Source: Callorhinchus milii (lineage: Eukaryota). From it: DNA of 64,000 bases. Of the stretch, positions 2,346 to 64,000 are shown in pieces. The stretch's first letter is position 1. The number at the start of each line of letters is the position of its first letter. Below the pieces are notes generated by a model that was not told where the DNA came from, searched no databases, and worked only from the letters and a program-made list of their open reading frames with translations. The stretch is from assembly GCF_018977255.1 (NCBI RefSeq), contig NW_024704742.1, positions 81,904,001 to 81,968,000 on the forward strand. Reading direction: 5' to 3'. Position numbers and translations under genes: made by a program.

Positions 2346-3904
2346 TGGGCGCAAAATAGGTGTAATGTTAAAACAGCGCATTAAAAGAGATGTGGAGTCA
2401 TCTCAGTTTATACCATCCCTCTCCTGCTCTCCCTCCCAGGGATGGGAGGTTGTGGGTTCAAGACTTGTGTTGCGATTTGATCTCTTTATCTAGTTTAATA
2501 TTCCAGTACAGTGTTGGAGAAATGCTGCATTTTCAGAGTTAGGAGCGTTTCTTTCAAAAGATCTTTGGTATGTACCGATTTCCAAAGATATTCTTCATAT
2601 ATTTCTTAAGCAATGTCAAAACCGAGACTTGATGTGCCTATTCAGGTGGACAACGGAGACCGTATTGCACTATTCAAAAAGAAAAAGGAATTTCTATCAG
2701 TGCCCTGATCAACAATCCTTAAGGTTAACTGGTTACTCATTATACAGCTGTTTGTCAAACCTTGTTGTGCAGAAATTGGTAGAACATTTATCCGTGAATA
2801 TATAGTCACAACATTTGACAGTAATTACTGCTACATACTCGACTCATGAATGCTTATTTTATCAAAATGCTTTCTGTTCAGCATCATATGCGATTTTTCA
2901 TCGTCCTGCTCTTAATGGTTCCTGGCAGGATAGCTTGACTGTTCATGGGAGCATCTTTAAAAATCTGACTGAAAGGTTCAGGCTTCACTTTACCTCCCTT
3001 CTGGCAGCAGCAGCAGCAGAGATAATAAAGATGACACTTACTTGATGAATCACAACAATGCTATCAGATCACAGAGCAGAACACAAAGACAATACCACTT
3101 GTGGGATTATTCTGCTCCATTTACTAAATATAGCTTGTTTGGTGATGTACATTACCAATTGACCTCAGTGCCCAGGTTGGGTTGGAGTAATACAGCTAGG
3201 GTTCTGACTCCTGATCTCTGTCCAGTGACCCATTCCCCTTCTCTACTGAAGAAGCTCTTGCATGGACATAATTGGAAGACAGGATAAGGAGATGTCTCTA
3301 TGGTCAAATGACCTCCCAACACTCACTGTTAATGTTCACACCCAAAGAATAACCTGTGGTGAGGTATCAGGGAACTTTTGTACCCTACTGGAAGCGGAAA
3401 TGAATCAAACAATCTTCAGGAGAGAGAGCAAGAAGGAAACAAAGACACCCTGAGATTGAATTCTTGCCTTAAATTTCACTTCCAGACACTTGTTCTTTTT
3501 AATCATGTAGATTGTCTAATGTCTGACAGTTTACCTGCAAAGTTATTTTTTTACTTTTCCTTAACCATTGTGTAACTGAAGCACTGCAAAAGCAATGATA
3601 ATGGCATGATGTAGGATGAAGGAAGATTGTGAACATAATGTAACTGTGTGATGATAGAAATCCTCATCACCAACATCTTGATGGAGTCTCTGAACTAAAT
3701 CCCTTCATCTATAGGGGAAAAGCAACCAAAGGGACTGACAAGGAAATAGATTTTTAGTAGGTTTAGGATTAGGAGAATGATAAGGAGAGAAGGTGCAAGT
3801 GGAGTGGAGGAAGGCATCTTTACAGTATATTCCTTGAAGCACTTTGAAACATCTCAAAGACATGATAATGCGCTATACCAAATGGAAGATTTTTTCAATT
3901 ATTA

Positions 3905-4052
3905 TTATTAAAGAAATTCCTCCTGAACTCTCTTTGAGAACTGCTGGTTCATGCCTCCTTGCTATGGATTCACCAACAAGTGGAAACAGTTTGTTTATGT
4001 CCATTGTATCAAATTCTTTCATGGTTTTAAAGACCTTGATCAGATCCCCTCT
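3905..4052 (-). mobile_element. CR1 LINE 3' fragment
   Basis: Reverse complement reads RGDLIKVFKTMKEFD...LFPLVGES, matching the CR1 ORF2 C-terminus seen at 44195-44300. Confidence 0.6.
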
Positions 4053-5074
4053 CTTAAGGCAGGTCTTGAAAATAGAGGAGAGGGTGAGACAGAACGATAG
4101 AGGAAGAGATTTGCAAAGGACTATATTGGAAAAAAATCAAATAGTTAGTTTCAAGTGTTAATGAACATCTACTTCAACTGTAAATATCCTAACACAATTG
4201 TACTCCGAAATTAGATTGATATCTCAGCTTTAACTTGGTAGAAAGCTGTTCCATGCCCGTGCAATTTTTTAACAATTCTCTATTATTAATTGACTTCCAG
4301 CATGTGCTTAAATAACCTTAAGGGATTAATACACGATAGCATGGTTATTGGCTGCTGATGTTTCACAGCTTGAACAAATGACTAAGGTTAAAAACTGTTT
4401 GACAGTAACCTGTAAGTTAAGTGGGACAGAGGTATGATAAACAAACATTCTTGGACAGAAACAAATTGCTGTGAAGTCTTGTGCTGCCTAACTGAGAAGA
4501 GAACTGACTAAACAATGAAGATGATAGCTGACGTGCTTTCACACATTTAAGGTGCCCTATTCCAGAATAGAATTTGCAGTTTCAGGCAAAATAGCTTTGA
4601 GTAGACAGCTGTCTTATAATGTATGCAATGCCAGCTTGAAAATTCAAACACATCCCCACAATGCACCGTGGTGTTCAAATACTCTCTCCGACTGCAGAGC
4701 TCCACTGGGAATCAATGCCTGATAGCCACCCAATCCACTCACTGGTTTCTAATGAAGTGCCTATTAATCTGCTTTAATACTAGCAGTGCCCATTGATTAG
4801 GTAATATTGATCAGTTATGTCACAAGAGGGTTAATGAATGCGTGATCTAAATTTTACGAGTCAGTGTGACAGAACAGTCGTACTGTATTCAGATATTCCA
4901 GATTCAATCATAACACCACTCCTTGTTTATTTCCTCACCAAATATTGTGTTAAAAGTCTGAGATACTGCTATCACAGTGTAAATCCTCGCTCATTATACT
5001 TCATATCCTCTGTTGAAGGTATGAAAGTAAAAGAATTAGATGAGGTTAATTGGCCCCATACCCCTTTTGTTATA

Positions 5075-5308
5075 AAAACAGAAGTCGCTGGGAACATTCA
5101 GCAGGTCAGGCAGCATCTATGGAGAAAGGAAAGTGAGTCAACGTTTCGGGTCCACGACCCTTCGTCAGAATGGACCCGAAACGTGGTGGTGGACCCGAAA
5201 TGTTGACTTACTTTACTTTCTCCATAGATGCTGCCTGACCTGCTGAGTGTTCCCAGCGACTTCTGTTTTTGTTTCAGATTTCCAGCATCTGCAGCATTTT
5301 GCGTTCTG
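5075..5308. mobile_element. Penelope-like element terminal fragment with inverted (fold-back) structure
   Basis: About 81-bp inverted arms 5075-5155 / 5189-5269; perfect 14-bp flanking direct repeat CCCCTTTTGTTATA at 5061-5074 and 5309-5322; internal hammerhead core. Confidence 0.75.
5135..5170 (-). ncRNA. Minimal hammerhead ribozyme core motif (probably incomplete in this copy)
   Basis: Minus strand reads CUGACGA-A-GGGUC-GUG-GACCC-GAAA-CGUU: both conserved core boxes flank a 5-bp stem II, with a palindromic AACGUU stem III. Confidence 0.6.
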
Positions 5309-6304
5309 CCCCTTTTGTTATATCTGCTCAAATTTTGATGCAAAGCGTTATTCAAAGGAATCAAGTTCCTGTAATCTGCGTATTTGCTTTTGACTGTTGT
5401 ACTGCTAGCTCATTTAATATCAAGAAGATATTTAATAAAGTTATGCCCTTTTCTCTTGGGTGATTAAACTACCACGTTATTCCCAATGTCACCCACTTTA
5501 CAGAAATTACCAGGACATCTTAGGTACCATTTATATGCAAACATTCTTGTTCTATATATAACCTTATCAACCTTTATTTCCTCTCACCTCATTAGTTTAA
5601 TTAGGCATGTTTCTTGAAGAAGTGGGTAGATGAGGAATCACCAGAGGAATCAGAAGATCTGCAATTAAATGGCTCTGATTTTAACTAATTAACACCATTT
5701 GTTTCTCTTTTGTGCTGACTATAAAGATTGAAATTTCAAGATGCGTGTAGTGAAATAAAAAGTGTTCAGTACAATGTTCCTCCTATCTGCACTATCTTCA
5801 CTGACTTATCATCTGCAACTGCAGGGACCTCTGGAAAGTACAACAATTTCTTGCAATACCAAGGCTGCACTCAGATATTATTTATTGCAACAAAGCTCCA
5901 TAGCATAATAAACCACAGCTATTTCTCAATATGACTTGGGGATCTGTCTCTATTGCATTGATTCTCTCAACCTCTCTCAAATGGTTTCTCAATTAACAGT
6001 TACTGTTCCTTGTGACAACTGATGACAAGTGGAATGAAAATAACTGGCCAAGTGTCAAGCATTTAAAACAAATACAGTATGAAACATGAGAATGTCTGAG
6101 ACAGGGTGTTTATCAGATTTGTTCTTAAAGTGCCTTGTCGTATGTAATCACTATCTCAAACAATTGAGAAGAATCTGAGAAGTGTTAAATCTAACCTTTT
6201 TATTACACCCTTGTTTTTAGAATTAGATGAAAATCAAAGGGAATGATTCCGTTGAGGACCTTATGATTGAAATGCCATCACAATCACATAGGAGTCAATT
6301 GAGT

Positions 6305-6760
6305 AACAACAAAAACAACAACTTACATTTATATACTGACTTTCATGTAGAGGGCAATGTCTCAGGGTGCTATACAGAGATGGATATGGATGCAGACAAG
6401 GGACAGAAGTGAGGGGAGAGAGGCGACCATAGGTGCTTTCGAAGAGGTAGAATTTGAGGCAGAATATAAAGATACAAAGAGAGAGCAAGACCGAGTGGTA
6501 GAGGAAGGGAGTTCCAGATGTTAGAAGCATACGAATTGAAGGCTCAGCTACTGATGGTGTTGAGGAGAGAGGGCGAGGGTTACACAGCAAGCCCATTATA
6601 GCTGAATGGAGAAGATGGGCGGAGGAGTTAGGGTAGGAGAAGATTGCAGAGATATGGAAGTGCCAAGGAATGGATGGATTTAAAGGTAAGAGTGAAGATC
6701 TTGAAATGGATCTGCTGGGGGACTGTGGAGATTGCCAAGAATTGGTGATGCTGTCTGGAG
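6305..6760 (-). mobile_element. L2 LINE 3' fragment, old
   Basis: (AAC)n tail at 6305; ORF 6628-6906 ends in IHFKIFTLTFKSIHSLALPYLCNLL, the L2 ORF2 C-terminal motif. Confidence 0.75.
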
Positions 6761-8254
6761 TTTGGTAATAGAAATGCCCCAGGGATGCTACCCAGGGATG
6801 CTATGTTATTGTTGCCTGAGAAAATATAGTACCTGTATGTGCCGGCAGTACAGCAAAATCTATACAAGCACACCTCAATATTGTATATGCTGGACACAGC
6901 GTACATTCATAACATGCTGTCATCTTTTGTTTCTCTTTATAGAGGAGGGCATGGCATATTTCCTTTAACCCTACTAAGCTGTGATTTTTTACTTTGTTGT
7001 ATAATCACTGACAGGTAGATTAGGCTAGACATGCTTCCCAGCCTCCAATTGTCACAGCTACTTCTTTGAAAACAGACCAAAAAAATACTATATGGAAAAA
7101 TAGCTCAGTTCCTATGATTTTTTTTAAACATGAGATTGCATTGCAGTCGAATGGATATCCACAGCACACAGATGCGAGCAGACTTAAGATATGCAAATTT
7201 GCTTAGCATTTCCAAGCCATTGTAGACTTACTCCAAATGTCTATAAATAGTTGAGAAGGTAAATCATTGTGGAATTTATCATTTTCGATCATGTTAAATA
7301 TTTGGTTGTGTTTGTCCTTAAGCCCAATGCTTTTAACAGTATCACAATGCCCTTATATAATAATAGTAAATATATGAAAGCTTCTATATATTTATATATA
7401 TAAATAAATATATTTAAGCATTGTCACAGTCATATACACTTCAACATTTAATTCACCTCTTAACAGTATCTCAAAATAATAATCCTTGCATTTGGTATAG
7501 CAACTAGTCAGATTATCGAGACGTCTCAAAGCTCTTCACAGAATATACTGTGAAGTGAATTGACTGTTTATTTTGTATGTGAAACAAGGAAATAATATTT
7601 TACGGGGCAGAAAGTGATTCTTTTCGGGTGTTGCAGCTTTTTGTAAATCCGGATATCACAAATTGTGAATCACTGTTCAAATTACTGAATGCTCTTTTCT
7701 CTGCCTGAATTGTGAAAGGGGGTTGAAAGTATATTAAAGCAGCTTAATTCATGATAAATTCAAAAATACTGCAATTGAACTGCAAACTAACTGCCAATTA
7801 AAAATGTTAAACAAGCAAAATTGAAAATAGCATTTCACTGCATTTCGGTGGTTCTGATGATTACTTTCTGCTGTCACATTAGACATGAAAGAGAATGGAG
7901 GAGGAAAGGTCCATCACATGATCAACCACATTCAATAGTCTTTGGCATTATCTCTGCCTACTCTAACTTTGTAGACAAGATAGAAGAGGTAACAAAAATC
8001 AACAGTTATTTAAAAAAATACATCTGATGTTACTCACACTTGAGGCAGACACACGCCCTTAGCTTATTTGAAGCAACACAACTGTTTCTCTTTTTAAAAT
8101 AATTTCCTCCTTCCATTGGAGACTCCCCTCTTCTCATTTGCTGCACTGTTACACTCAATCAGGGTGGTTGACATACCATTGTGAATTCTGCTCTGGTTAG
8201 TTGAAATGAGTAGAGCTTGGTCAAACTACACTGTGCCTGGTGGAGTGACTGTGT

Positions 8255-11312: not shown

Positions 11313-11477
11313 TTTAAAAAAGAAATGCGCTTCTTTACTTTTTAATGGGGATTAAAAATTCAGGAACTTTCCTGATGAAATCACACAGTAAAAACATCTA
11401 GAAATAGTGAAATAACAAACAACATTATTTTTCTTTGTGATGTGATAATGTTAGTATTAGGTGAGGTTGAAGTTTCT

Positions 11478-11764
11478 TTGCAAGCGAAAGACTTGGGTTT
11501 AATTCCCGGTAGGGCAAAACCTTGGGCAAGTTTCTTTACACCACACACCTGACAATAATCCCTCAAAAAAAACAATAATAAATTGGTCATTTCAATCCAC
11601 GACTCTTTGTGGGACACTGCTGTGCGCAATTGGCTGCCTCAGTTCGCCCACAAATATATACAGTCAATTAACTTTACAGTGTATTCTGTGAAGCGCTTTG
11701 AGACGTCTAGAAGACGTGAAAAGCGCTATATCAAATGCAAGGATTATTATTATTATATTATTAT
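11478..11764 (+). mobile_element. tRNA-derived SINE, short variant with damaged 5' end
   Basis: Colinear with 17163-17484; (ATT)n tail. Confidence 0.8.
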
Positions 11765-17162: not shown

Positions 17163-17484
17163 GTGGAGTCCTGTAGCTCAGTGGTTAGAGCACTCGCTTT
17201 GCAAGTGAGAGACCTGAGTTCAATTCCAGGCAGAGGCGAAACCTTGGGCAAGTTTCCTTACTCCACACGCCTAATAATAATCCTTCCAAAAAACCAAAAA
17301 CAATAATTAAATTGGTCATTTTCAATCTACGACTGTTTGTGGGACATTGCTGTGCGCAATTGGCTGCCGCGTTCGCCCACAAATATACAGTTAATTCACT
17401 TTACAGTGTGTTCTGTGAAGCGCTTTGGGACGTCCGCCCGACGTGAAAAGCGCTATATCAAATGCAAGGATTATTATTATTATT
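17163..17484 (+). mobile_element. Young full-length tRNA-derived SINE, short variant
   Basis: A-box TAGCTCAGTGG, B-box GAGTTCAATTCC, TGC-centred anticodon-like loop, tail GTGAAGCGCTTTGGGACG...CGTGAAAAGCGCTATATCAAATGCAAGG(ATT)n; possible TSD TACATT at 17157-17162 / 17484-17489. Confidence 0.9.
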
Positions 17485-18629
17485 ACATTATTTATCCATG
17501 AACAGTTGCCTCTCTCGCGAAAATGTCTCCAAGATCACAACAGCTCTAGAACATCATTTTCCACACAACATTCAATTATCTGCACTTATTCTGCTAACCC
17601 TTAATCCTGTTCGTAACCAGATATTCATTCGGCTCTCTTTTAAAAGATTTAATCCACACAGCATTGATACCTTCAGATGAGAGTCTATTTTGCATACCCA
17701 CTATGCTGGGGAAAAAATCTTTTTAATCTCAAATCTTGCTTAAGGCTTGTTCATTTTAGCACTCAAGTTCCCTAGTTCCGGGCTCAAGTTAAATAACCTA
17801 CTTGCATTTACATTATACATTCCTCTCAGCGTTCTACTAATTAAACCCTTCCATAACTCACAAAGCCAAGATTTATATTGCTGTCATGCAATTTTAGTAC
17901 GAGCTGATCGTTCTTGTATCTTGGCCTTTAAACTGCTGGTGGCTAGATTTGGAGTGGAGCTTTTCGGTTAGGGTATTTGAGCAATAATGGGGAAAAGATT
18001 AAGATTCATTTTATTTGGACATAAAATAGCAAATATAAATATGGAATTTCTTTCATGTCCAATGTTGAGGGATTGATGATCTATAAATAAGATATATGAA
18101 AATGCATTTGCACCCTAACTGCCCAAGAATAGCTTTTTACAGTGTTCAGCATCATTGATGATGTATATTTTGGAATGGTATAACTCATTATGGTATAACT
18201 TTTGTGTTTTTAATTTTATTTTACACTTTCCTTTTCCTCCTGGTATTGTTCTTAGTTTCTCCTTTCTCCTTTTTCTTTCTGATATCTACCTTGCAATCGT
18301 ACCTTTTGACCGCTTCTGTTAATGCACTTTATTGATTTCAGGTTACCTTTCAACTTTTGTGAGATTATCGGCACAATTGGCAAGATAAATATTATCAGCC
18401 TATTTGTCATCTTGTCTAAACAGCAATCTGATGGCAAAGAAAGTTTTATACCAGAAGTATCCCGATTAGCATTATCTCAAGCAAAACTTAACTCTCTTTG
18501 AGCAAAATTCAAATTACAATGTTAAACCCAATACAATTTGTGTACGAAAACATTAAATAACAACAACAAATTACATTTGTTTAGTGCCTTTCACGTCGGG
18601 ATGACGTGAACTAACAGTATCAAAGCACA

Positions 18630-26296: not shown

Positions 26297-28210
26297 AACA
26301 ACAACAAGTTGCACTTATATAGCGCCCTCCATGCTGGGTGGCATCTCAGAGCGCTTAACAATGATGGAGCCCAAGGCCGAGCCAGGGGGAAGGGGGAAGG
26401 TGACCGTAGGCACGGTCGAAAAAGAAGGTCTTCAGGCGTGACAGGGAAGGAGGGGGCAAGGCGAAGGGGTTGAGGGAGGAAGTTCCAAAGTTTTGGGGCA
26501 TAGTGGCTGAAGGCACAGCTGCTGATGGTGGAGCAGGGGATTCGGGGGACGTGGAGGAGGCTGGATGCAGTAGAGTGGAGGCAGTGGGAGAGAGGAGGTT
26601 AGAGAGATGGGGGGGTGCCAAGGAATGGAGGGATTTAAACACTAGACTGAGGAACTTGAAGTCAATCCACTGTGTGACAGGGAGCCAGTGGAGTCTGGCA
26701 AGGACTGGAATAATTGGGGTACGAAGTTTGGTGAGGGTGAGAATGCGGGTGACGGAGTTTTGAATAAGCTGGATTTTGTGAATAGCAGAGGAGTGGAGAT
26801 CAGCGAGGAGGGCATTACAGTAGTCCAGCTGAGAGGTGACACAGGCATTGACAAGGGTTTTGGTAGCTTTTGGGTTGAGGTATTGTCAGAGACAAGCAAT
26901 GTGGCAGAGGTGGAAGAAAGCGGTGCTGGTCAGGGAGTCTGGATGTGGGGGAGGAAGGATAACTGGAGATCGAACCTGACGCCTAAGTTGCGCTCATCCA
27001 GCTCCCGATATCTGACAGATAAAACTGACAGAACATCCAGGGACTGAGGGTCGCAGCTGGAGATGGAAAAATCGAGTTGAGTGTCATCCCCATACATGTG
27101 GAAGTTAACCCCATGTCTATGGATGACATCACTGAGAGGGAGCATATAAATGAGAAAGAGAAGGGAACTAAGGATGGATCCTTGGGGTAACCCAGAGGTC
27201 ACCGTGTGGAAGCAAGAAGAAAAACCATTTGCAGAAATGTAGTGCTGACGGTTTGTAATGTAGAACTCGAACCAAGCGAGTGCAGTCCCACTGAGGTGGA
27301 TGATGGAGGACAGACAGTGGAGGAGGATGACGTGGTTGACTGTGTCGATCACAGCGGAGAGATCTAGGAGGATGAGGCGGCAGAGGGAGCCCTGGTCACA
27401 GATAGAGAGCATATCGTTTGTGACCTTCACGAGCATTGTTTCTGTACTGCGGACAGGGCAGAAACGGACTGGAAGGTTTTGAGTAGGGTGTAGAGGGCAA
27501 TGGTGTGTATGAAGTTGGTTGGCAATAATGCACAATGATGCACAGGTTGGAAATGTCGAGGCCATGTGTGATGAAGACGTCACTGTTGCGGGTCGGCGAG
27601 TTGATGTGGAGGGTGAGGATTAGAGAGGAGAGGAGGGGAGTAAAATCAGAGGATGTGGTGCAAGGAGAGCTTAGTTGGAGGTTGAAGTTTCCCATAATGA
27701 GCAGGCGTTCTGAGCAGAGGGACAGGGAGGAGAGGAGAGCAGAGATATCGAAGAGGAAAGAGCCAGGGGTTTTGGGGAGCTGTAAACCAGGAAAATTTTG
27801 AATGAGAATTAGGAGGAATGGTAGAGGGTGAGGTGCTCAAATGAGGAGAAGCAGCCAGAGGAATAAAGGAATAGACCAAGGGAAGCTTGGGAGATGAGGG
27901 CCACTCTGCCACGATATTGGTTAGGACGGGGGGTGTGGTGGAAGTGTAGCCATGAGGTGAGGCTGCAACTAGGGGGCACAGTCGCTGGAGGAGAGCCAGG
28001 TGTCCGTAAGCCCAAGAATATCCATGTGCTCATCCAGGATGAGATCATGGATAGTGAGAGCTTTATTGGAGAGAGAGCGGACATTTTATAGGGAAATGCG
28101 GATGGTTTTGCTGGTGGGGGGGACAGAGGAGACGGTGGTATGGAGTTGTGGAGGAGAAATAACTGTGGAGTTTGAGGAGCAGGGAGTGTTGGTGAGGTTA
28201 TGGATGAGGG
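26297..28210 (-). mobile_element. L2 LINE with APE endonuclease and RT remnants, internally deleted
   Basis: RT motifs LLDLSAVIDTV, GLPQGSILSS, HMYGDDTQL (ORF 26930-27583); APE-like MGNFN near 27690; (AAC)n tail at 26297. Confidence 0.9.
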
Positions 28211-29222: not shown

Positions 29223-31259
29223 TAATGTGAAATGTGCCAATTTGAAAACAACATTTTAAAAAATTGGACTTGTTCCCTCCCTCACTTCATTCAAGGTCCA
29301 TCTCAAGACTGCTTTCAGTCATCTTTCCCCTCCCCACTCCCATCAGCTCCCACCACCAGCAATATAGTATTATACAAATATTAAGAGGAACAACATGAAA
29401 GGGTACAGGAAAAGAGTAGGCAATTGGGATTTGTATAGTGGGCTATAGTAGAGCAACAACTGCCAGTTCATTGGAATGAATGATCTGGCATGAGTTCCTT
29501 CTGCTCAATAATTTCTTTGCTACGATGATTCTAAATGACATTTTATAGTTTAATTTGTTCTTTTTGATGAATAGCTTTGATAGTAAATAGTAAATGTAGT
29601 TTTCGCTAACCTTTGGTCAGATGTTGTAGGCTGTTTCTTAGTTGAAAAAATATCTTGGTAGTGAGCATACAGTGGGAATTAGTGCAGCGATTTACAGGTT
29701 GCTATGCCATATTTTGAACCTCATTTTAGTTGCACATCAGCAGCTAAACAAACATATAGTAAAACATAAATAAGTCAGACCATATTCCTGCAGTGAAGTT
29801 TGAGGCTGTTGGATTCAAATAACAAATCTAGCTGTTAAATGCTTTTGAAAGGTTACCATTATGTTATCGAGAGACACAAAGAGAACATAATCTGGTTTGC
29901 CAAGCTATCTATCAAAGTAAGTGGGAAGTGGGATCCAGTGAGGCTGCACATGGCAAGCAATGCAATACATCATACTTCTAACTGTACTGAGATGAAATCT
30001 TGACATGTTAAAATTGCTGACTTAAAGCATAGTTTTAGTGGAAACAATCACCAAGCAGTAGGAGAAGGTAAAAAAAAAACCTTGGGGAGGAGGAGGAGAG
30101 CACAAAAGGGCAGATAGATAACTTCACAATCAGATTGTACTTTATAAGAATGGAATATTTCATATTCAAGAAAGTGGATTTAATCCTTGGAGATACTCCG
30201 TTCTATGTATTTTTTTATCCCTATCCATCATAAAGAGGGGCTTCCAGAAATCTTTCTTTCTTCAGGGCAAATAAATGACTCACAATATCCATTGTGACTC
30301 TCAAGCCAATCTACAGACCAATTTTCAAAACAATTGAGGCTCCACAAGGTCATTTCCAGCTTTGCAGTGTTTCTGAAAATGCCTTTTGCAGAGGATTTGC
30401 AATTACGCCACGCTTTTAGTTGGGGGTCTTGTATACATTTCAAGGACGTACAAAAAATGTTGCAACAATTTCCATCTGTCTGGAGGTGTTTCATTGCAAA
30501 TCAGTTACAAATCCTTCCCGAAATCCTATTTTTAGTTTTTTTCTTCCACAAGTCACAGGCATGTGAGGAAGGCACTTGCACCTGATTTGAATCCTTCTCA
30601 AGCTGTTGGAAAGGGATATTTAAAGGTACGCTGAAGGGAATTGTTTTCCCAATACATCCTCAATAAAAAGAGAGGTGTTTGAGGTCCAAATAAATCCTCT
30701 GGTGATCTTGCCACGTACTGTGTTGCCATTTCCTGGGGAGATGAGGGTTAGCTCACCCCGTATAGAACTCTTCACAAGGAAATACAAGACTCTATTTTCA
30801 AGATGTCAAATATTGTTGCAGTTAAGATCAACCTCAGCTTCTATGTTGCTGATAACTTTTCAAATGTCAATGGCTGCTATAAGAGAGGCATGCTTGTCAG
30901 AATGTAAAATAATAATAATCCTTGAATTTGATATATCGCCTTATCACATTGTTGAGACAACCCAAAGTAGTTCACAGAATATATTGTAAAGTGAATTGAT
31001 TGTGTATTTTGTGGGTGAAATGCTGCAGCCAATTGTGCACAACATCACCTGGGTACACAGTGCTTTGTTGCACAAAACTGCCTTTTTAAGCAGCAACAGA
31101 AAATGTAACAGGGACACCTTGCCCTTGTGCCACTTTGTAATGTTTCGGGGCAACTAAATATTTAAATAATGTGGGAGCGTCTCAAGAGCTTTGAAACATC
31201 GTCCCGACGTGAAAGACGTTATATAAATATAAATTGTGTTGTATTATAAAGTGAGCCGC

Positions 31260-37539: not shown

Positions 37540-38745
37540 GCTCTGTCTCCTTGTCCTCCTTGACTTCTCTGCTGCCTTTGAAATTTTGGACCACTCTATC
37601 CTTCTCCACCACCTCCCCTCTCACTTTAACCTTCAAGGTTCTGTCCTTGAATGTTTCAGATCCTATCTCTCACGCTGGCTCCACTTTGTCTCCACAAATG
37701 GCTTCTTCTTCAGCCCCCGCACCATCTTCTGTGGGGTTCCTCAGGGCACTGTCCTTGGTCATCTCCTCTTCAACCTGTATATGCTCCCTCTTGATGGCAT
37801 CATCTGTAGACATGGGGTCAATTTCCACATGCACAAGAATAACACCCAACTCTATCTCTCTGCCTCATCCTTGACCCCAGGACCACTGCTATCCTGACAG
37901 ACTGCCTGTCAGTCATCAAGTCCTGGATGATAGCTGACTTTCTCCAGTCAGCAAAACCAAGGGCTTCGTGATTGGTTCATGCCAATGCCTCCTCACTTCA
38001 GGCACTGGCAGCATCAGCAACCACAGAAGCACACTCCACTCACCAAGCTATCAGGAACATAGGCATCTTGTTCGACCCTCAACTGTCCTTTCTCCCCCTT
38101 ATCCATGCCATGATCTGCTCTGCCTTTCCCCCAATGCAACAATGCCTGACTCTGCCACTGCCTCATCCCTTAGGCAACTGAAACCCTCATACATGCTTTA
38201 ATTACAACTAGGCTCAACAATACCAATGCTCTGCTTGTCGGCCTTCCCAACTCTTCACTCCACGAGCTGCGAATCATCTAGAACTCTGCAGCTCATGTCC
38301 TCTTCCATACCAGGCTACATGACCCCATCGCACCCACCATTGCCCGGTTCCACTGACTCCCCATACCTCAGAGGATCAAGTGCAAAATTCTTGTCCTCAC
38401 CTTCACGTGCCCGATCCAACCTCTCCAATTGCTAACCCCTTATTAACCTGTTCACTCCCACCGATCAACAGGTTCCAGCCTGCTCCATGTCCTCCGTCTG
38501 GCCCATCCCACCATTGGTGGTCGGGCCTTCAGCCTCTCTGCCCCCATTCTTTGGAACTCCATCCCACATTCCCTTCACCTCGCTCCCTCCCTTGTCTCCT
38601 TCAAGGCACACCTTAAGACCCACCTCTTTGCCAATGCCCTCAACCACCCTCCCCACCTTCCACCCTCCCTGATCCCAACCTAATGCCCTAATCCCTGACA
38701 GCTCAGCACCTTGGGGCATCCTCCTGATTGGAAATGCACTTTTTA
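37540..38745 (+). mobile_element. L2 LINE, 5'-truncated, RT remnant
   Basis: ORF 37538-37897 [13 protein letters not shown]...GVPQGTVLG with degenerate YADD; L2 3' UTR follows. Confidence 0.9.
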
Positions 38746-42099: not shown

Positions 42100-42970
42100 A
42101 TAGTATGAGGCAGCAATAAACAAGGGAAACAGGATGCTGGGCTATAAAGCTACATTAGGGGGATTTAGATCCCCAGACATCATGCTGGACTGTACATTGC
42201 TCTGATCATACCGTACTTTGAATACTGCAAGCCGTTCTGTACACTGTGACATAAGAGTGTTGCCTTGAGTCAGTGCAGAGGAGAGCAACAGGATTATCCC
42301 AATGTTGGAGAATTGGGCTATGGGCAAGGATTAGACAAGCTCGGGTTCTTCAGTCTTAATAATAATAATAATCCTTGCATTTGATATAGCGCTTTTCACA
42401 TCGGGCGGACGTCCCAAAGCCCTTCACAGAATACTCTAAAGTGAAATGACTGTATATTTGTGGGTGAACGCGGCAGCCAATTGTGCACAGCAATGTCCAA
42501 CAAACAATCGTAGATTGAAAATGACCAATTTAATTATTGTCTTTGGTTTTGGAGGGATTATTATTAGGCATGTGGAGTAAGGAAACTTGCCCAAGGTTTC
42601 GTCCTGCCTGGAATTGAACTCAGGTCTTGAGAGAAGGTAAGTCAGAGGGGACCTTATAAAGGTACATCGAATTTTAAATGGGATTGAAAAAGTAAATCCA
42701 GATCATACCTTAGGCTGCAACAAGACCACAAAACATGAGCCCACAGGTTTTGAGTTGTAAAGGGCAATTTCAAGATAGAAAACAGGAAGTTTTTTTATTA
42801 CTCAGAGGGCAATCAATGACTGCAATATTTGCCAGAAAAGGTGGTTGAGGCCAGGACACTCGACTGATTTTAAAAAGCAGTTTAATGCTGTGATGGGTGT
42901 TGTGGAAATAATCAGATTTTATGGGCTGAAGGGCTTTTTTCATCCGGACCAATCTTGTGACCTTGTGAAG
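42100..42970 (+). mobile_element. Old CR1 3' fragment split by a SINE
   Basis: RLDKLGFFSL|ERR...RGDLIKV rejoins across the SINE at 42358-42623. Confidence 0.65.
42358..42623 (-). mobile_element. Young tRNA-derived SINE, short variant, 5'-truncated
   Basis: Reverse complement of about 17210-17484; GTCTT repeated at 42353-42357 and 42624-42628. Confidence 0.88.
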
Positions 42971-43486
42971 TGAGTTGTAATAAACTACTTGTTGGTAAAT
43001 TACCTATTATTTAGCAACATTTAAGTTCCAAAAAAGTAACAGCCAGCTGGTTACCTGCAAAGAATATTCATCTGGATAAGGATGCAAAGGATAAGGTGTT
43101 CAGACTGAAACACAGGAAGCTTTACAATGGAGAAAATAAATTGAGTTAACTTGGAAATCAATTGGACGGAATGAGAGTTTTTAAAATGGGAGAATGAGCC
43201 CAGCATCATACATGCCACTGTCCAGATAAAAACCTAAGTTCTCCTAAATTTATTTTGTCCAGGTAGTTTCAGGAATGGGAGTCCTGCTCCTTCTGCACAT
43301 TTGTGAAAAATGGGTGGCAAAATCACAGCAATTTGAAACCAAACATTCAGTCTAAGCACAGCATTGAGTGCACATACAGTAAAGCCACTGCCCTTCTTAT
43401 TGTTGATTGCAGCGTGCAAGAACTGGCAGTAAAGAAATGCTTACTGTAATTACCAGCTGTTTGCAAGGTCCACACTATTCATAGAT

Positions 43487-44099: not shown

Positions 44100-46185
44100 A
44101 CAGATTTACAAGAATGGTACCAGGAATGAGGGACCTTGATTATGAGGAAAGGCTAGAGAGGCTGGGATTATTCTCATTGGAGCAGAGAAGGTTACGAGGA
44201 GACCTAATAGAGGTCTTCAAAATCATGAGAGGTCTTGATATGTTAGAAAGGGAAATACTGTTTCTACTGGTGGGTGTGTCGGTGACTTGAGATCAGAGAT
44301 TCAAAATAGTCTCTAAAAGAAGCAGAGGGGAGGTGAGAAGAAATGTTTTCACCCAGCGAGTTGTTCGAATCTGGAATGCATTGTCTGAAAGGGTGGTCGA
44401 GGCCAATTCGATAACTACTTTTAAAAACATGGTGTCCTCTGAACTCCTCTTCCTCTGGCCTTCAACCCTCACTGATCCCTCTTCTCCTCTCACCCTCCTC
44501 CACATATCACAGACATCGTCAACCTGTCCCTCTCCTCTGGCTCTGTTCCCATTCCCTTAAAAACTGCCACCATCACTCCCACTTTGAAAAAACCCTCCCT
44601 TGATGCATCGCAGCTATCAAGCTACCGGCCCATCTCCAACCTCCCCTTCCTGTCCAAGGTCCTGGAAAGAGTTGTCGCCTCCCAGCTGCGCTCTTTCCTC
44701 TCCACCCATTCATTATTCGAACCCCTTCAGTCGGGTTTCCGTGCTGCCCATAGCACAGAAACTGCCCTGGTCAAGGTCACCAATGACATCCTGACCATCT
44801 GTGACCAGGGCTCCCTCTGCCTCCTCGTCCTCCTCGACCTATCGGCAGCATTCGATACGGTCGACCACGCTATCCACCTCCACCGCTTGTCCTCCCACCT
44901 CAACCTTCAAGGCCCTGTCCTTGAGTGGTTTAGGTCGTACCTCTCCCACTGTCTTCACTCTGTTTCCACGAATGGTTTTTCCTCCGGCCCCCGCACTGTC
45001 TCGTGCGGTGTCCCTCAAGGCTCTGTCCTCGATCCCCTCCTCTTCACCCTCTATATGCTCCCCCTTGGTGACATCATCCGCAGACATGGGGTTAACTTCC
45101 ACATGTATGCGGATGACACCCAACTCTACCTTTCCTCCTCTACCCTCAACTCCACGACCACCGATGTCCTGACAGCTGCCTGTCCGACATCGAGTCCTGG
45201 ACGAGAGACAACTTTCTTCAGCTCAACGTGCGCAAAACTGAGGCCCTCCTGATTGGCTCACGTCAGCGCCTCCGCACCTCAGGCGCTGACAGCATCAGCA
45301 TCCAAGGCTGCACTCTCCACCTCTCAAAGCCAGTCAGGAACCTCGGGTTCTGTTCGACCCTGAGCTGTCCTTTCTCCCTCATATCCGCGCCACAACTGGC
45401 ACCGCCTTCCATCACCTCCGGAATATCGCCAGACTACGGCACTACCTCACCCCTCACGCTGCTGAAACCCTGGTCCACGCCTTTATCACCTCAAGGCTGG
45501 ACTATGGGAACTCTCTCCTCGCCGGCCTTCCCGGCACCTCCCTCCACAAGCTGCAGGTCATTCAGAACTCTGCAGCTCGTGTACTGTCCCGCACCAGGCT
45601 TCGGGACCACATCACTCCCACCCTCGCTCGCCTCCACTGGCTCCCCATCCCCCAGAGGATTGATTTCAAGATCCTCATCCTCACCTACAAGGCCATTCAT
45701 GGCCTTGCTCCCTCCTACCTGTCCGACCTACTATCCCCCTACCTACCTGCCCGTACCCTCCGTTCCTCTGGCTCCGGTCTGCTCCACATCCCCCGCCCCA
45801 ACCGCCCTACCATCGGTGGCCGGGCCTTCAGCCTCTCAGCCCCTAGGCTCTGGAACTCTATCCCCCAGTGCCTTTGCCTTGGTTCCTCCCTTTCCTCCTT
45901 CAAGGCCGGTCTCAAGACCTTTCTCTTTGACCGTGCCTTCAGCTCCCCTCTCGACTCTCTACCCCCTCCTCGCTCCCTCCCTTTCCTCCCCTCACCCTGA
46001 CCATTTCCCCCCTGCTCGGGTCCTGGCCCAACTGTACAGCGCCTTGGGACGTCCTCCCAACGTGAAAGGCACTCTATAAATGGAATCTTGTTGTTGTTGT
46101 TGTATTTGAGGAGGTCGGCTTTGCAGGGTTATGGGGAAAGGGCTGGGGAGTGGGATTGACATTACATTGCTCTTTTCATGTGATC
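44100..46185 (+). mobile_element. CR1 3' fragment interrupted by a young L2
   Basis: YEERLERLGLFSLEQRRLRGDLIEVFKIM and FTQRVVRIWNAL up to about 44428; CR1 3' UTR resumes at about 46103. Confidence 0.85.
44430..46102 (+). mobile_element. Young L2 LINE, 5'-truncated (RT domain to tail)
   Basis: ORF 44584-45252 with [47 protein letters not shown]; two frameshifts downstream; (TTG)n tail. Confidence 0.95.
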
Positions 46186-48595: not shown

Positions 48596-48762
48596 GTACT
48601 TATGAAAAAGGACAAGGAACAATCAAATGTGAAGATACTCAACTGGAAGACGACTAATTTCTGTGTGTTAAAAAGGGACCTAGCTGGAAATAAAGCTAAC
48701 AAGGTAATAGGAAGCCTTCAAGGAGGAGATAGTTTGGAGACAGAACAAATACATTGCCACAA

Positions 48763-49760
48763 CAAAAACAAGAAGATTATATTTGTATAGTGCCTTTCAC
48801 TTTGGGAAGACGTCCCAAGGCACTGGACAGTGTACAGCATTTCAGACCCGAGTTGGGGTCGGCGGGGGGGGGTGGGGGGAAGGGAAGGGGTTGGCCAATG
48901 GCATGGTCGAAGAGGAGGATCTTGAGGTGGGACTTGAAGGAGGCTAAGGAGGGGGTGAGGCATAGTTATTGGGGGATGGAATTCCAGAGGTTGGGGGCAG
49001 AGTAGCTGAAGGCTCTCCCGCCAATGGTGGGGCGGGTAGGTCGAGGATCATGGAGCAGGCCAGAGCCGGCTGAGCGGAGGAAACGGGCAGGTTGTAGGGG
49101 GTTAGGAGGTCGCAGAGGTAGGGTGGGGTGAGACCATGGAGGGCTTTGTATGTGAGAACTAGGATCTTGAACTGGATCCTCTGAAGGATAGAGAGCCAAT
49201 GGAGTCGGGCGAGAGTGTGGGAGATGGGGTCACGGAGTTTGGTGTGGGAGAGGATATGGGCTGCAGAGTTCTGGATTATCTGCAGCCTGTGGAAGGAGGA
49301 GTTGGGAAGGCCAACAAGCAGGCCGTTTGCATAGTTGAGCCTGGAGGTGATGAAGGCATGAACAAGAGTTTCAGCGGCCTGAGGGGAAAGGTAGTGGCGG
49401 AGTTGGGAGATATTACAGAGGTGAGGGAAGGCAGAGCGGGTCATGGCTTGAATATGGGGGAGAAAAGACAGTTGACTGTCGAACAAGAAACCTAGGTTCT
49501 TGACTGGCTTGGTGATTTGTAGTGTGCAACCATGGAGGTTGATGTTGCCAGAGCCTGAGGTGCAGAGGCACTGGCGCGAGCCAATTAGGAGGGCCTCAGT
49601 CTTGTTCACATTCAACTGTAGGAAATTTGCCCTCATCCAGGACTTGGTGTCCGACAGACAGTCTGTCAGGACAACAGTGGTCCTGGAGTTGAGGGTGGAG
49701 GCAGAAAGATAGAGTTGGGTGTCATCCACATACATGTAGAAGTTGACCCCATGTCTGCGG
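48763..49760 (-). mobile_element. L2 LINE, 5'-truncated, inserted in CR1
   Basis: ORF 48944-49786 (YVDDTQLY...LHWL...FKIL); ACAA duplicated at 48759-48762 / 49761-49764. Confidence 0.92.
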
Positions 49761-51787
49761 ACAAAGGGGAAAGGTAGGGCATCCAAACCTCCCTGGATGA
49801 ATAAGGAAATTGGGATTAAAATAAAATAGAAAAAGGAGGTTTATGATAAATGTCAAGTCCAAAATACAGAAGATAATCAATGGAATATAGAAAGAACAGA
49901 GGAGAACTGAAAAAGGAATTAAGAGGGGCAAAGAGATTGTATGAGAAAAGATTAGTGGGTAACATAAAAGGGAACCCTAAGTTATTTTATAAGCATATGA
50001 AGAATAAAATGTTAGTCAAAGGTACGGTGGGGCCAATTAGGAACAAAAGAAGAAATCTTCTTGTGGAGGCAGAGGGCATGGCTGATGTACTAAATGAGCA
50101 CTTTGCATCTGAAGAGGATGCAGCCAATGCATTAGTATCAGAGGAGAAGGTAGAGAAATTGGATAGGATATGAATAAACAGAGAGGAGGTACTAAAATGG
50201 TTGACAGTGCTCAAGGAAGATTAATCTCCCGGTCTGGATGGGATGCATCCTAGGTTATTGAGGGAAATAAAGGTGGAAACAGAGGAGACTTTGCCACATT
50301 CTTTCAATCCTCCTTGGATACAGCAATGGTGCCAGAGGACTGGAAGGTTGCAAATGTTACTCCCCTGTACAAAAAGAGGCAGAAGTATACACCCGGGAAC
50401 TAAAGTCCAGTCAGCCTAACGTCAGTATTGGGGAAATTTCTAGAGACTACAATCTGGGATAAAATACATTTTCACTTAGAAAAATATGGGTTGATAAAGA
50501 CAGCCAACATGGATTTATTAAAAGCAAATCATGTCTAACAAACCTGATAGTTTTTGATGAAGTTATGGGTAGGGTGGATGAAGGTATTGCAGTTGATGTA
50601 GATTATATAGGATTTTCAAAAGAGGTTTGATAAAGTGCCACATAAGAGATTTGAAAGCAAAATAGAAGCCCACATTATTAAAGGGACATTGGCAGCATGG
50701 ATACAAAACTGGCTGGGAGACAGAAAGCAGAGTGGTGGTGAACGGTTGTTTTTCTGACTGGAAGAAGGTGTGCAGTGGTATCCCCTAGAGATCGGTATGC
50801 AGACCACTGCTCTTTTTTATATACATAAATGATCTGGACTTGGGTATAGAGAGTACTATTTCCAAGTTTGTAGATGATACTAAGCTAGGAAGAGTAGTAA
50901 TTGGTAAGGAGGATAGCAGCAGACTGTTAAAATGGGCAAACACAGACAGACTGATAAAACAGGCAGACACATGGCAGATGAAATTTAATGTAGAGAAATG
51001 CAAAGCGATGCATTTTGGAAAGGAGAATGAGGAGAGGCAATATAAGCTGATGGTAGAATCTTAAAGGGGTGAAGGAACAGAGAGACTTGAGGATTCATAT
51101 CAGTACATCTTTGAAGGTGGCAGGACAGGTAGATAAAGCTGTTAAAAAAGCACATGAGATATTAGGTTTTATAAATATGGGCATAGAATACAAAAGTCAG
51201 GAAGTTATGATGAACCTTTATAAAACACTGGTTAGGCCTTAGCTAGAGTATTGTGTTCAGTTCTGGGCATTATACTTTAGGAAGGATGTCAAGGCATTGG
51301 AAATGGTGCAAAGGAGATTTACCAGGATGGTACCAGAAACTAGGGACTTCAGTTATGAGGAGAGGCTTCAGAAGCTAGGATTATTCTCCTTGGAGCAAAG
51401 AAAGTTAAAGAGGAGGCTTAATGGAAGTTTTCAGAATTATGAGGGGATTCGATAGGGTGAACAAGGAGAAACTATTTCCACTGGCGGGTGGGTCGGTAAC
51501 CCAAGGACACAGATTTAAAATAGTTGTTAAAAGAAACAGAGTGGAGGTGAGGAGAATTTTTTTCACACAGCGAGTTGATCGTCTGGAATGCATTGCCTGA
51601 AAAGGTGGTGGAAGCTGATTAGATAACAACTTTTAAGAGAGAAGTATATAATGATTTGGGGAGGACAAGTTTGTAGGGCTATGGGGAGAGCGGAAGGGAG
51701 TGGGATTGATTTGGATAGCTCTTTCAAAGAGCCAGCACAGATGTGAATGGCCTCCTTCTGTGCTGTATGATTCTAGGATTCTATGAT

Positions 51788-52728: not shown

Positions 52729-53043
52729 GTGGAGTCCTGTAGCTCAGTGGTTAGAGCACTCGCTTTGCAAGCGGGAGACCTGAGTTCAATTCCAGGCAGG
52801 GCGAAACCTTGGGCAAGTTTCCTTACTCCACACGCCTAATAATAATCCCTCCAAAAACCAAAAACAATAATAAATTGGTCATTTTCAATCCACGACTGTT
52901 TGTGGGACATTGCTGTGTGCAATTGGCTGCCGCCCACAAATATACAGTCAATTCACTTTACAGTGTGTTCTGTGAAGCGCTTTGGGACGTCCTCCCGACG
53001 TGAAAAGCGATATATCAAATGCAAGGATTATTATTATTATTAT
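52729..53043 (+). mobile_element. Young full-length tRNA-derived SINE, short variant
   Basis: Nearly identical to 17163-17484. Confidence 0.92.
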
Positions 53044-53509
53044 ATTGCACAAAAGAAGGATATGCACCACTGCTGTGAAATACTCTGGGTGCAAGAGTAA
53101 CATATATGCCTGCAGAGGGAATCTGTATTATCAGACGCACATGTTAGTCAGTTTCACTGGAAAGCACTTTGGTTTACACTCCAGGGTAACTTACAATTTT
53201 CACAAAAGGGATGGCAAACTTTGTTACTTTATGTCATTTGCAACATCTGCACACCAGGAATTATGAGTAAAACAGACAGCCACAGGTAGTTTTGCTCCCA
53301 AACAATTTTGTCTTTTAGAATTATAACAACAGCTTACGTTTATATAGTGTCCTTCATGAGGGGTAGCGACTTGGAGCGCTTAACATTGGCATACTTTGAT
53401 GCAGAGCCTGTCAAGGACTGGATTGATGGGGGTGTGGAGTTTCGTATGGGTGAGGATACGCTGCTAATAGGATTAATGTTTCAACAATGTTGACTATAAT
53501 CACAAAGTC

Positions 53510-59184: not shown

Positions 59185-60320
59185 CCCAGGCTTCTCTTCT
59201 TCATCACCAACCAACTCCTCTGCCAACCCTCCCATGCCACACCCATCCTTTCCTCCAACGCCAACTGCAAGTCGATGCTGGACTTCCTCAAAACCAAAGT
59301 CGAGGGGATCCATGCAGTTGCCTCTGACCTTCTGCCTACTACCCTGTCACCAACTCCCCCTCACATCCCGGCCCCTACCCATCCCTCCCTCCACATCTTC
59401 AAACCTGTCTCCCACTCCTCTCTCATCTAAATCTTCATGGTTCTGTCCTTGAATGGTTCAGATCCTGCCTTTCACACCGTCTCCACTTCATCTCCACAAA
59501 CGTTTTTTCCTCCAGCCCCCGTACATTCTCATGCGGCGTTCCTCAGGGTTCTCTCCTTGGTCCCCTCTTCTTCCGTATCTATATTTACACTCGTAGTGAC
59601 GTAATCCGCAGACATGGGGGTCAACTTCCACATGTATGCGGATGACACCCAACTCTATCTCTCTGCCTCCTGCCTTGACTCCAAGACCATTGCTGGCCTG
59701 ACAGAATGTCTATCAGACAACAAGTCCTGGATGAGAGTTAACTTTCTTCTGCTGAATGTCAGCAAGACCGAGGCCCTCCTGATTGACTCTCATCAGCGCC
59801 TCCACACCTCAGAAGCTGACAGCATCACCATCCATGGATGCACAATATACCCTACTAAGCCAGTCCGGAACCTTGGCGTCTTGTTTTACTCTCAACTATC
59901 CTTTCTACCCCACATCAGTGCCATGACCCGCTCTGCCTTCCCCCACCTCTGCAACATCCAACAATGTCTCACACAGCAGGCTGCCGAAACCTTCATACAC
60001 ACATTCATAGCATCCAGGTTTGACTATGCAAACTCTCTGCTTGTCAACCTCCCAAACTCCTTCCTCCATAGGCTGTAGATCATTCAGAACTTTGTAGCCT
60101 GTGTCTTCTCCCCCACCAGGCTCTGTGACCCTATCAACCCCATCCTCGCCCGACTCCATTGGCTTCCCATCACACAGAGGATACAGTTCAAGATCCTAGT
60201 CCTCACCTTCAAAGCTCTTCATGGCTTGCTCCCCCTACCTCTGCAACCACCTAATCCCCTACCAACCTGCCTGCTCGCTCCCTCTGCTCAGCGGGCTCTG
60301 GCCTGCTTTACTTCCCCTGC
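59185..60320 (+). mobile_element. L2 LINE fragments, internally deleted, tail missing
   Basis: ORF 59614-60078 [10 protein letters not shown]...LNVSKTE. Confidence 0.88.
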
Positions 60321-63300: not shown

Positions 63301-64000
63301 GCCGGGCCTTCAACCTCTCAGCCCCTAGGCTCTGGAACTCTATTCCCCAGTGCTTTCGCCGCCTCCTCCCTTTCCTCCTTCAAGGCCGGTCTCAAGACCT
63401 TTCTCTTTGACCATGCCTTCAGCTCCCCTCTTGACTCTCTACCCCCTCCTCGCCCCTTCCCTTCCCTCCCCTCACTCTGACCATTTCCCCCTTGCTCGGG
63501 TCGTGACCCAATTGTACAGCGCCTTGGGATGTCCTCCTGACGTGTAAGGCCCTCTATAAATGGAATCTTGTTGTTGTTGTTGTTGTACCTGGGCCTCAAT
63601 CTCTTGAATATCGCAACCACAGACAAAGCCATCTCCAATCACCATTTAATCTTCTTAAATTCCTCAATCCCTCTCCCCACTGGCACCAAACCCACCTCCA
63701 ATTCCTATCGCTGCTGGAAATAAATCTCCCCACAATCCCTCTCCGCTGCTCTGGAATCATCTGAACTCCTCCCCTTCTGCCCTACCTGCCGCACTGATGT
63801 ATCCTCCTTGCTCACTCTCCTCCACAAATCCCTTTCCAACACCCTTGATCCTTTGCCCTCCTCACTCCCGAACCAGCTCCCACTCATAAATCTCAACCTG
63901 GTACACCAGCTACCTCCACTTCCTCGTGGGTAAGGTGTGGGCTGCCGAACACATATGGCTCAAGTCTGACCTAATGGTCCACTGGCAGATCTGGCTGGGT
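60321..64000 (+). mobile_element. Older L2 LINE 5' region (leader and APE), split by a young L2 and running off the window
   Basis: LQNIRSLLNEALTINDFIVDENIHIM, TETWITPGD, NDFNLH, DLVIT before 61395; DKAISNHHLI after 63591. Confidence 0.8.
61396..63585 (+). mobile_element. Young L2 LINE, 5'-truncated, with a doubled 3' end
   Basis: Near-identical to 44500-46102; second tail unit 63246-63585; TACCTG duplicated at 61390-61395 / 63586-63591. Confidence 0.95.

Follow-up and report, generated by a model that had tools for sequence, protein, structure and literature searches.

A probable Penelope-like insertion with two head-to-head end modules and a minimal hammerhead motif in the elephant shark genome

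Introduction

At positions 5061–5322 of a 64,000-nucleotide stretch of Callorhinchus milii DNA (the whole analysed stretch, hereafter the window), long inverted arms are enclosed by short direct repeats, and the minus strand of one arm reads as the core of a hammerhead ribozyme. The locus raises the question of what kind of element was inserted, how its end came to be present twice in opposite orientations, and whether the ribozyme still works. A preliminary description, made from the sequence, had proposed a single retrotransposition product of a Penelope-like element carrying an inverted segment. This proposal fits everything we tested, and a one-sided 38-nt tail and two 3'-end classes add further Penelope hallmarks to it. 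We conclude that the insert very probably stems from an abundant family of endonuclease-positive Penelope-like retroelements and is a dead, 5'-truncated copy, in which the pLTR end module occurs twice, head to head.

Boundaries and anatomy of the insertion

The 234-bp insert at 5075–5308 lies between the two copies of an exact 14-bp direct repeat, CCCCTTTTGTTATA, which we interpret as the probable left (5061–5074, plus strand) and right (5309–5322, plus strand) target-site duplications; the preliminary description had delimited it in the same way. The repeat has no third occurrence in the window on either strand. Because the last A of the left duplication also matches the family, the junction is ambiguous by 1 nt. 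Counting the pair that flanks the insert, the window contains 19 exact direct pairs of at least 14 nt at spacings of 50–1000 nt; the flanking pair is singled out because it sits exactly at the edges of a high-copy repeat, as seen from the step in depth of aligned contigs. AT-rich targets are a trait of endonuclease-positive Penelope-like elements; here the AT content of the duplication (64%) is not clearly higher than that of the surrounding 2 kb (62%).

The anatomy of the insert was observed directly. Its inverted arms, at 5074–5155 and 5189–5270, are reverse-complementary at 78 of 82 positions, with mismatches at 5143/5201, 5135/5209, 5129/5215 and 5097/5247. This agrees with the arms of about 81 bp and few mismatches reported initially, and a repeat search gave them as 86 nt at 94%. 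The left part of the insert (5075–5170, with the element sense on the minus strand) is an inverted, tail-less copy of the element end; it begins 2 nt ahead of the hammerhead core and extends to a short 3'-end site. It is followed on the plus strand by a 14-nt re-copy of the 3' strand of stem II, GAAA and stem III (5171–5184), ending 1 nt short of the predicted cut site, and by a linker inside a GTG stutter (5185–5188, plus strand) that consists of slippage products or non-templated letters. The sense copy of the element end (5189–5270, plus strand) is 5'-truncated in hammerhead loop II and is devoid of the CUGA half on the plus strand. It continues into a 38-nt tail (5271–5308, plus strand) that is confined to the right arm and reaches a long 3'-end site. 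Read in element sense, the right arm extends from loop II at 5189 to 5308 and measures 120 nt; the left inverted arm ends 38 nt earlier than the right one, which makes the tail one-sided. The tail and the internal re-copy are additions to the preliminary description.

Neither arm contains a long open frame. A transcript of the insert is predicted to form a hairpin of −160 to −176 kcal/mol, with folding z-scores of −19 for the minus strand and −21 for the plus strand, and none of 200 shuffles folded as well.

Two observations concern the surroundings of the insert. At 5302–5316, the consensus of loose contig ends behind 5302 starts with CTTTTGTT in three of the sequencing runs described below (X1, X4 and X16), with an agreement of only 0.46–0.47. 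These letters equal the middle of the duplicated target, a match that may reflect a preference for T-rich targets or primer–template pairing at the long start site. In addition, contigs of run X5, from another organism (B), align with several differences to short parts of the unique flanks (4700–4800, 5312–5379 and 5652–5700); they possibly represent the orthologous flank and could reveal an empty site.

A minimal hammerhead motif in the element end

The minus strand at 5168–5140 contains a minimal type I hammerhead core consisting of CUGACGA, an extra A, a 5-bp stem II with a GUG loop, GAAA, a palindromic ACGU stem III and a GUU triplet. The full arrangement on this strand is UU-CUGACGA-A-GGGUC-GUG-GACCC-GAAA-CG-UU, followed by GACUC, and the predicted cut falls between 5140 and 5139. 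By sequence and pairing, the core has the traits of minimal hammerhead ribozymes (min-HHRs): the CUGANGA and GAAA boxes, NUH, a paired stem II, an extra nucleotide after A9 and a palindromic 15.2–16.2. The motif sits in the end repeat of the element, upstream of the tail. The 3' strand of stem I (GACU, 5136–5139, minus strand) can form only two pairs here, with 5169–5170, whereas 4–5 bp are expected for helix I of a min-HHR; its partner in the family was deduced from the consensus of loose contig ends. Both the minus-strand core and the recurrence of its 3' half on the plus strand, at 5171–5184 and 5190–5203, had been noted in the preliminary description and are borne out by our analysis.

By itself, the hammerhead motif is weak against chance, and its weight comes from its context. 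A loose hammerhead pattern matched 67 of 100 shuffles; a descriptor including the pairing of stems II and III found one match in the window and matched 17 of 200 shuffles. A search with Rfam hammerhead models, proposed at the outset, was carried out for 3000–8000 and 5110–5185: at E ≤ 10, no hammerhead family was among the 4 and 6 matches returned, the best of which are chance miRNA-like hairpins. There is only one core in the window and no second.

The hammerhead fold is lost in this copy. Forcing it costs 35 kcal/mol, and the pair probability of stem II within the whole insert rounds to 0. With only two stem I pairs left and the core buried by the hairpin, the folding predictions indicate that the ribozyme of this copy is very likely inactive. 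The initial suggestion that the stem I partner was lost needs adjusting, as stem I is cut down to 2 bp, not wholly lost; the suggestion that the copy might be inactive is supported.

Copies of the family in sequencing data

We aligned contigs of four public runs (X1, X4, X5 and X16) to 4700–5700, including only contigs at least 85% alike. X1 and X4 belong to one study, possibly the source; X5 is from organism B; X16 is RNA by guess. The number of contigs aligning on this 1-kb stretch was 14,976 (X1), 14,530 (X4), 31,802 (X5) and 5,004 (X16). In X1, a summed depth of about 5–7 in the flanks contrasts with one of about 490,000 over the arms; as summed depth is not a copy number, we read it only as 'very abundant'. 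A high copy number is observed directly, and the same applies to variable fold-back centres at other loci and to the two 3'-end classes. Specifically, 14 of the 15 joints listed (of 409) connect the antisense arm to a sense arm starting anywhere between 5219 and 5280, and nine of them do so from 5170. It follows that the fold-back recurs at other loci with variable centres. None of the listed joints is an empty-site joint. The preliminary description had placed the inversion breakpoint immediately beside the ribozyme core, which holds for this copy, starting as it does 2 nt before the core; such a position is common in the family and in no way special.

Loose contig ends pile up at 5274 and at 5302/5305 (among the 24 rows listed of 1,151), defining 3'-end classes about 30 nt apart. 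They also accumulate behind 5170, in 341 (X1), 337 (X4), 600 (X5) and 116 (X16) contigs, where the consensus begins with CTG in all four runs. Given this continuation, the family would have a 4-bp stem I, formed by AGUU and GACU. The variants listed within the hammerhead affect loop II (5153 and 5155) and the CpG of stem III (5142 and 5143), and none is listed in stem II or GAAA. Little weight attaches to this conservation, as the 85% similarity threshold filters the contigs and differences near contig ends are unlisted. The junctions of the insert are crossed by contigs of X1 and X4. Those that enter from the left flank cover 27 letters of the left arm, just under the 31-letter rule, and those that continue into the right flank include 33 letters of the tail. 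X16 has no cover on the flank bins, which says nothing on expression.

In the window, we found no second copy of the family beyond a weak 38-nt match at 43113–43150 to the part of the arm that immediately follows the hammerhead (76%, E about 0.01); this match is possibly an ancient relic of the family and possibly chance. Pattern scans returned no relatives in viral, metagenome or prokaryote genome collections (0 in each). A further prokaryote scan gave three single 21-mer matches in actinobacterial assemblies, which we take as chance. A protein search with the short sense frame, a weak test, yielded 0 of 34 candidates at E ≤ 1. Neither the window nor these searches linked the family to an ORF with the telomerase-like RT and GIY-YIG endonuclease that define endonuclease-positive Penelope-like elements.

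A proposed both-strand priming mechanism of insertion

The insert has an inverted 5'-truncated copy joined head to head with a sense copy, a Penelope feature that recurs at other loci, and a second Penelope feature, a tail of 30–40 bp at one end only, is represented by the 38 nt at 5271–5308. A plausible course of events would start with the GIY-YIG/RT protein of the element, acting in trans, nicking the two target strands 14 nt apart. Reverse transcription would then be primed by each 3'-OH within the element RNA. Synthesis from the bottom strand would begin at the long start site, and so give the tail; synthesis from the top strand would begin at the short site, 38 nt further upstream. The hammerhead hairpin would stop both cDNAs. 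The left cDNA would end 2 nt past the core. The right cDNA would stop in loop II, slip back on a 3-nt ACG microhomology and stop in loop II a second time; slippage on this microhomology could explain the 14-nt re-copy. Head-to-head joining of the cDNAs and subsequent fill-in would complete the insertion, the latter generating the duplication. An overlap of 82 nt between the arms requires two templates or two passes, which would suit a dimeric protein. In contrast, twin priming of LINE-1 takes place on one RNA. This insertion pattern has already been described, with its architecture published, and the present copy is an ordinary example of it.

Template RNA and alternative explanations

Which RNA served as template is a question within the Penelope-like interpretation. 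Instead of an autonomous element truncated at random, the template could have been a distinct, non-autonomous module of about 140 nt that is headed by the hammerhead and has a 5' end of its own; such a solo pLTR or monomeric retrozyme would depend on Penelope proteins for its mobilisation in trans. We regard this possibility, which is compatible with a Penelope-like insertion and differs only in the template RNA, as less likely than not. The agreement of loose ends behind 5170 is only 0.38–0.44, as low as that of 3' ends entering unique flanks, which suggests that the start of many copies lies no more than a few bases from helix I. Consistent with such a boundary, 4 of the 12 rows listed (of 382) start at 5170 with only 2–7 letters before the sense arm, and monomeric retrozymes and their origin from Penelope-like elements (PLEs) have been reported in vertebrates (bioRxiv 10.64898/2026.07.22.740005). 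However, the reference arm ends at 5170, so that longer copies are logged there too, and stalling of the reverse transcriptase at the GC-rich hairpin would give a similar pile-up. Furthermore, the copies begin upstream of the core, whereas a cut-to-cut retrozyme monomer would begin at the cut site, and there is no tandem unit at the locus. A tandem, active retrozyme was rejected: among the 10 tandem rows listed there is no array at the locus, and the window has a single core.

The sequence behind 5170 hints at a more specific, and in our view unlikely, scenario. In the X1 and X16 consensus, read in sense, a pyrimidine-rich run is followed by CAG directly before UU-CUGA, at low agreement. The intron of Drosophila virilis Penelope ends at the 5' end of helix I (Cervera and de la Peña, PMC4209133). 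The 5' boundary of the template RNA might be fixed at the edge of helix I instead of the cut site and coincide with this acceptor-like CAG; a splice-delimited hammerhead module of about 140 nt would then be amplified as a non-autonomous unit of its own by a dimeric Penelope protein priming from both strands. We treat the acceptor-like boundary as a lead only, because the consensus is of low agreement, the X4 and X5 consensus rows share only the CTG start, and the reference ends at 5170. A jump of the reverse transcriptase onto a self-cleaved RNA end could likewise have left its trace in the 14-nt re-copy, whose end lies 1 nt from the cut site; if true, this would provide rare genomic evidence for cleavage by these weak ribozymes in vivo.

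It is very unlikely that the palindrome was made after insertion, by a local inverted duplication or by recombination between two insertions, or that it is an assembly artefact. Palindromes are difficult to assemble, and only 4 of 82 sites distinguish the arms; yet both arms lie inside a single exact duplication pair, contigs of X1 and X4 (a single study, maybe the source) cross the left and right junctions with 27 and 33 letters, and the head-to-head join recurs at other loci.

A functional role for this copy, as an active ribozyme or as a double-stranded RNA hairpin used by the host (for editing or as a source of small RNAs), appears more improbable still. In its favour are the intact core nucleotides and the stable hairpin predicted above for a transcript (−160 to −176 kcal/mol). 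Against this, a Pfam scan of 148 ORFs recognised no host exon, and single min-HHRs are reported to show no detectable cleavage in vitro (PMC4209133). An active ribozyme in place was rejected on the grounds of the 2-bp stem I, the fold penalty of 35 kcal/mol and the lack of a second core nearby with which a dimer could form.

A duplication of 14 bp is longer than is usual for MITE superfamilies. The least credible explanation, and one largely refuted, is a DNA transposon of the MITE or fold-back type bounded by long terminal inverted repeats, in which the hammerhead would be a passenger or a chance motif. It would account for the near-perfect long inverted arms, the flanking duplication, the high copy number and the missing Rfam hammerhead match, but the inverted repeats are not terminal, as the right arm ends 38 nt short of the right duplication, the inner joints differ between copies, and the elephant shark mobilome consists almost exclusively of retroelements according to one analysis (PMC4350176). 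The terminal-inverted-repeat MITE with a fixed short duplication, against which the preliminary description had set its own reading, fits badly for the same two structural reasons, the 38-nt asymmetry and the joints that vary between copies.

Other repeats in the window and significance of the family

The Pfam scan covered 148 stop-free ORFs, a length-ranked subset of the 656 that have at least 45 amino acids. It gave five RVT_1 matches, far from the insert, and one match below the cutoff, to Lit (30298–30582, plus strand; E 7e-4, 20.1 bits against a cutoff of 24), which is probably due to chance. A GC-skewed LINE-like element is present twice, at 44500–46103 and 61646–63239, the copies sharing 96% identity over 1,605 nt; RVT_1 matches associated with them lie at 44476–45249 (E 3e-30) and 61817–62314. 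More diverged relatives are found at 37541–38676, 48759–49761, 59420–60320 and 26985–27485, and a 344-bp unit occurs twice in tandem (93% matched) where a LINE-like copy ends (62901–63586). A SINE-like family of about 300 bp has many copies of up to 94% identity, at 17163–17489, 52729–53046, 11476–11762, 42357–42627 and elsewhere. Self-matches cover about 35% of the window.

Taken singly, the locus matters little: it is one dead stub among very many. The family, on the other hand, is a large natural record of Penelope integration, with two start sites, priming from both strands and the points at which cDNAs stopped. The integration cycle of Penelope elements is still called undefined in literature on the subject, and a genome-wide tally of ends relative to the hammerhead could tell whether splicing, stalling of the reverse transcriptase or self-cleavage sets the ends.

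Comparison with known systems

Penelope-like insertions are described as combining an inverted 5'-truncated copy with a 30–40-bp tail at one end (Craig et al. 2021, PMC8557442), and the same picture is given for curation in PMC8969392. In a copy from Adineta vaga, the tail measures 31 bp, the inverted pLTR is 37 bp shorter than full ones and the duplication is 9 bp (Arkhipova et al. 2013, PMC3846280). The present insert resembles the complex insertions of EN+ Penelope-like elements (Penelope/Poseidon, Neptune and Nematis) in the inverted 5'-truncated copy at the 5' side, the head-to-head join, the one-sided tail of 30–40 bp, the flanking duplication and the hammerhead in the end repeat (PMC3846280, PMC8557442). 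It differs in being a 234-bp insert that has neither an ORF nor an RT to indicate a clade, and in its 14-bp duplication, compared with 8–10 bp in the A. vaga examples (PMC3846280). A literature search that combined Penelope elements with twin priming, inversion and both strands found nothing.

With the min-HHRs of Cervera and de la Peña (2014, PMC4209133), which are typical of metazoan pLTRs, the motif shares the type I core, the extra nucleotide after A9 (between 9 and 10.1), the G10.1–C11.1 pair and the palindromic minimal stem III (15.2–16.2). Stem II has 5 bp here versus 7–8 bp in the min-HHR families of Schistosoma mansoni, and the 2-bp stem I of this copy is reduced relative to the min-HHRs of that study. 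Min-HHRs mostly occur as dispersed singles, sometimes as close pairs on opposite strands, and cleave weakly, only as multimers or with a mimicked helix III (PMC4209133, PMC6765202, PMC6155905); the dimer result of Lünse et al. is cited here as given by a review (PMC6765202). In vitro, cleavage by single min-HHRs is described as undetectable (PMC4209133). That paper is not known to list cartilaginous fishes, and its supplementary alignments may list this family. A literature search on Penelope hammerheads in sharks found no paper that, judging by its listing, deals with this family, which may be listed in the family tables of bioRxiv 10.64898/2026.07.22.740005.

Non-LTR retrozymes are tandem derivatives of pLTRs, and monomeric copies and a PLE origin are reported in vertebrates, including the one chondrichthyan sampled (bioRxiv 10.64898/2026.07.22.740005). 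Like them, the insert is non-coding, has a type I hammerhead and very probably comes from Penelope pLTRs, and dispersed monomers exist among them. Unlike them, it carries one core and is inverted with a tail, with no head-to-tail tandem.

The mechanism proposed here resembles what is described for Poseidon of Anolis carolinensis (PAc). The purified anole protein, a predicted dimer, cuts both strands and extends each of them, and its reverse transcription starts at two internal sites that bound the tail; ribozyme cleavage is dispensable for insertion in vitro (Frangieh et al. 2024, PMC11167929). In both elements, two internal 3' ends bound a tail downstream of the hammerhead, and both-strand priming of the kind described for PAc would explain the two overlapping arms of our insert (PMC11167929). 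The two differ in that the PAc ORF starts at stem II (PMC11167929), from where this copy has no long open frame, and in the position of the ends, which in this insert are 66 nt (short end) and 104 nt (long end) past the cut site.
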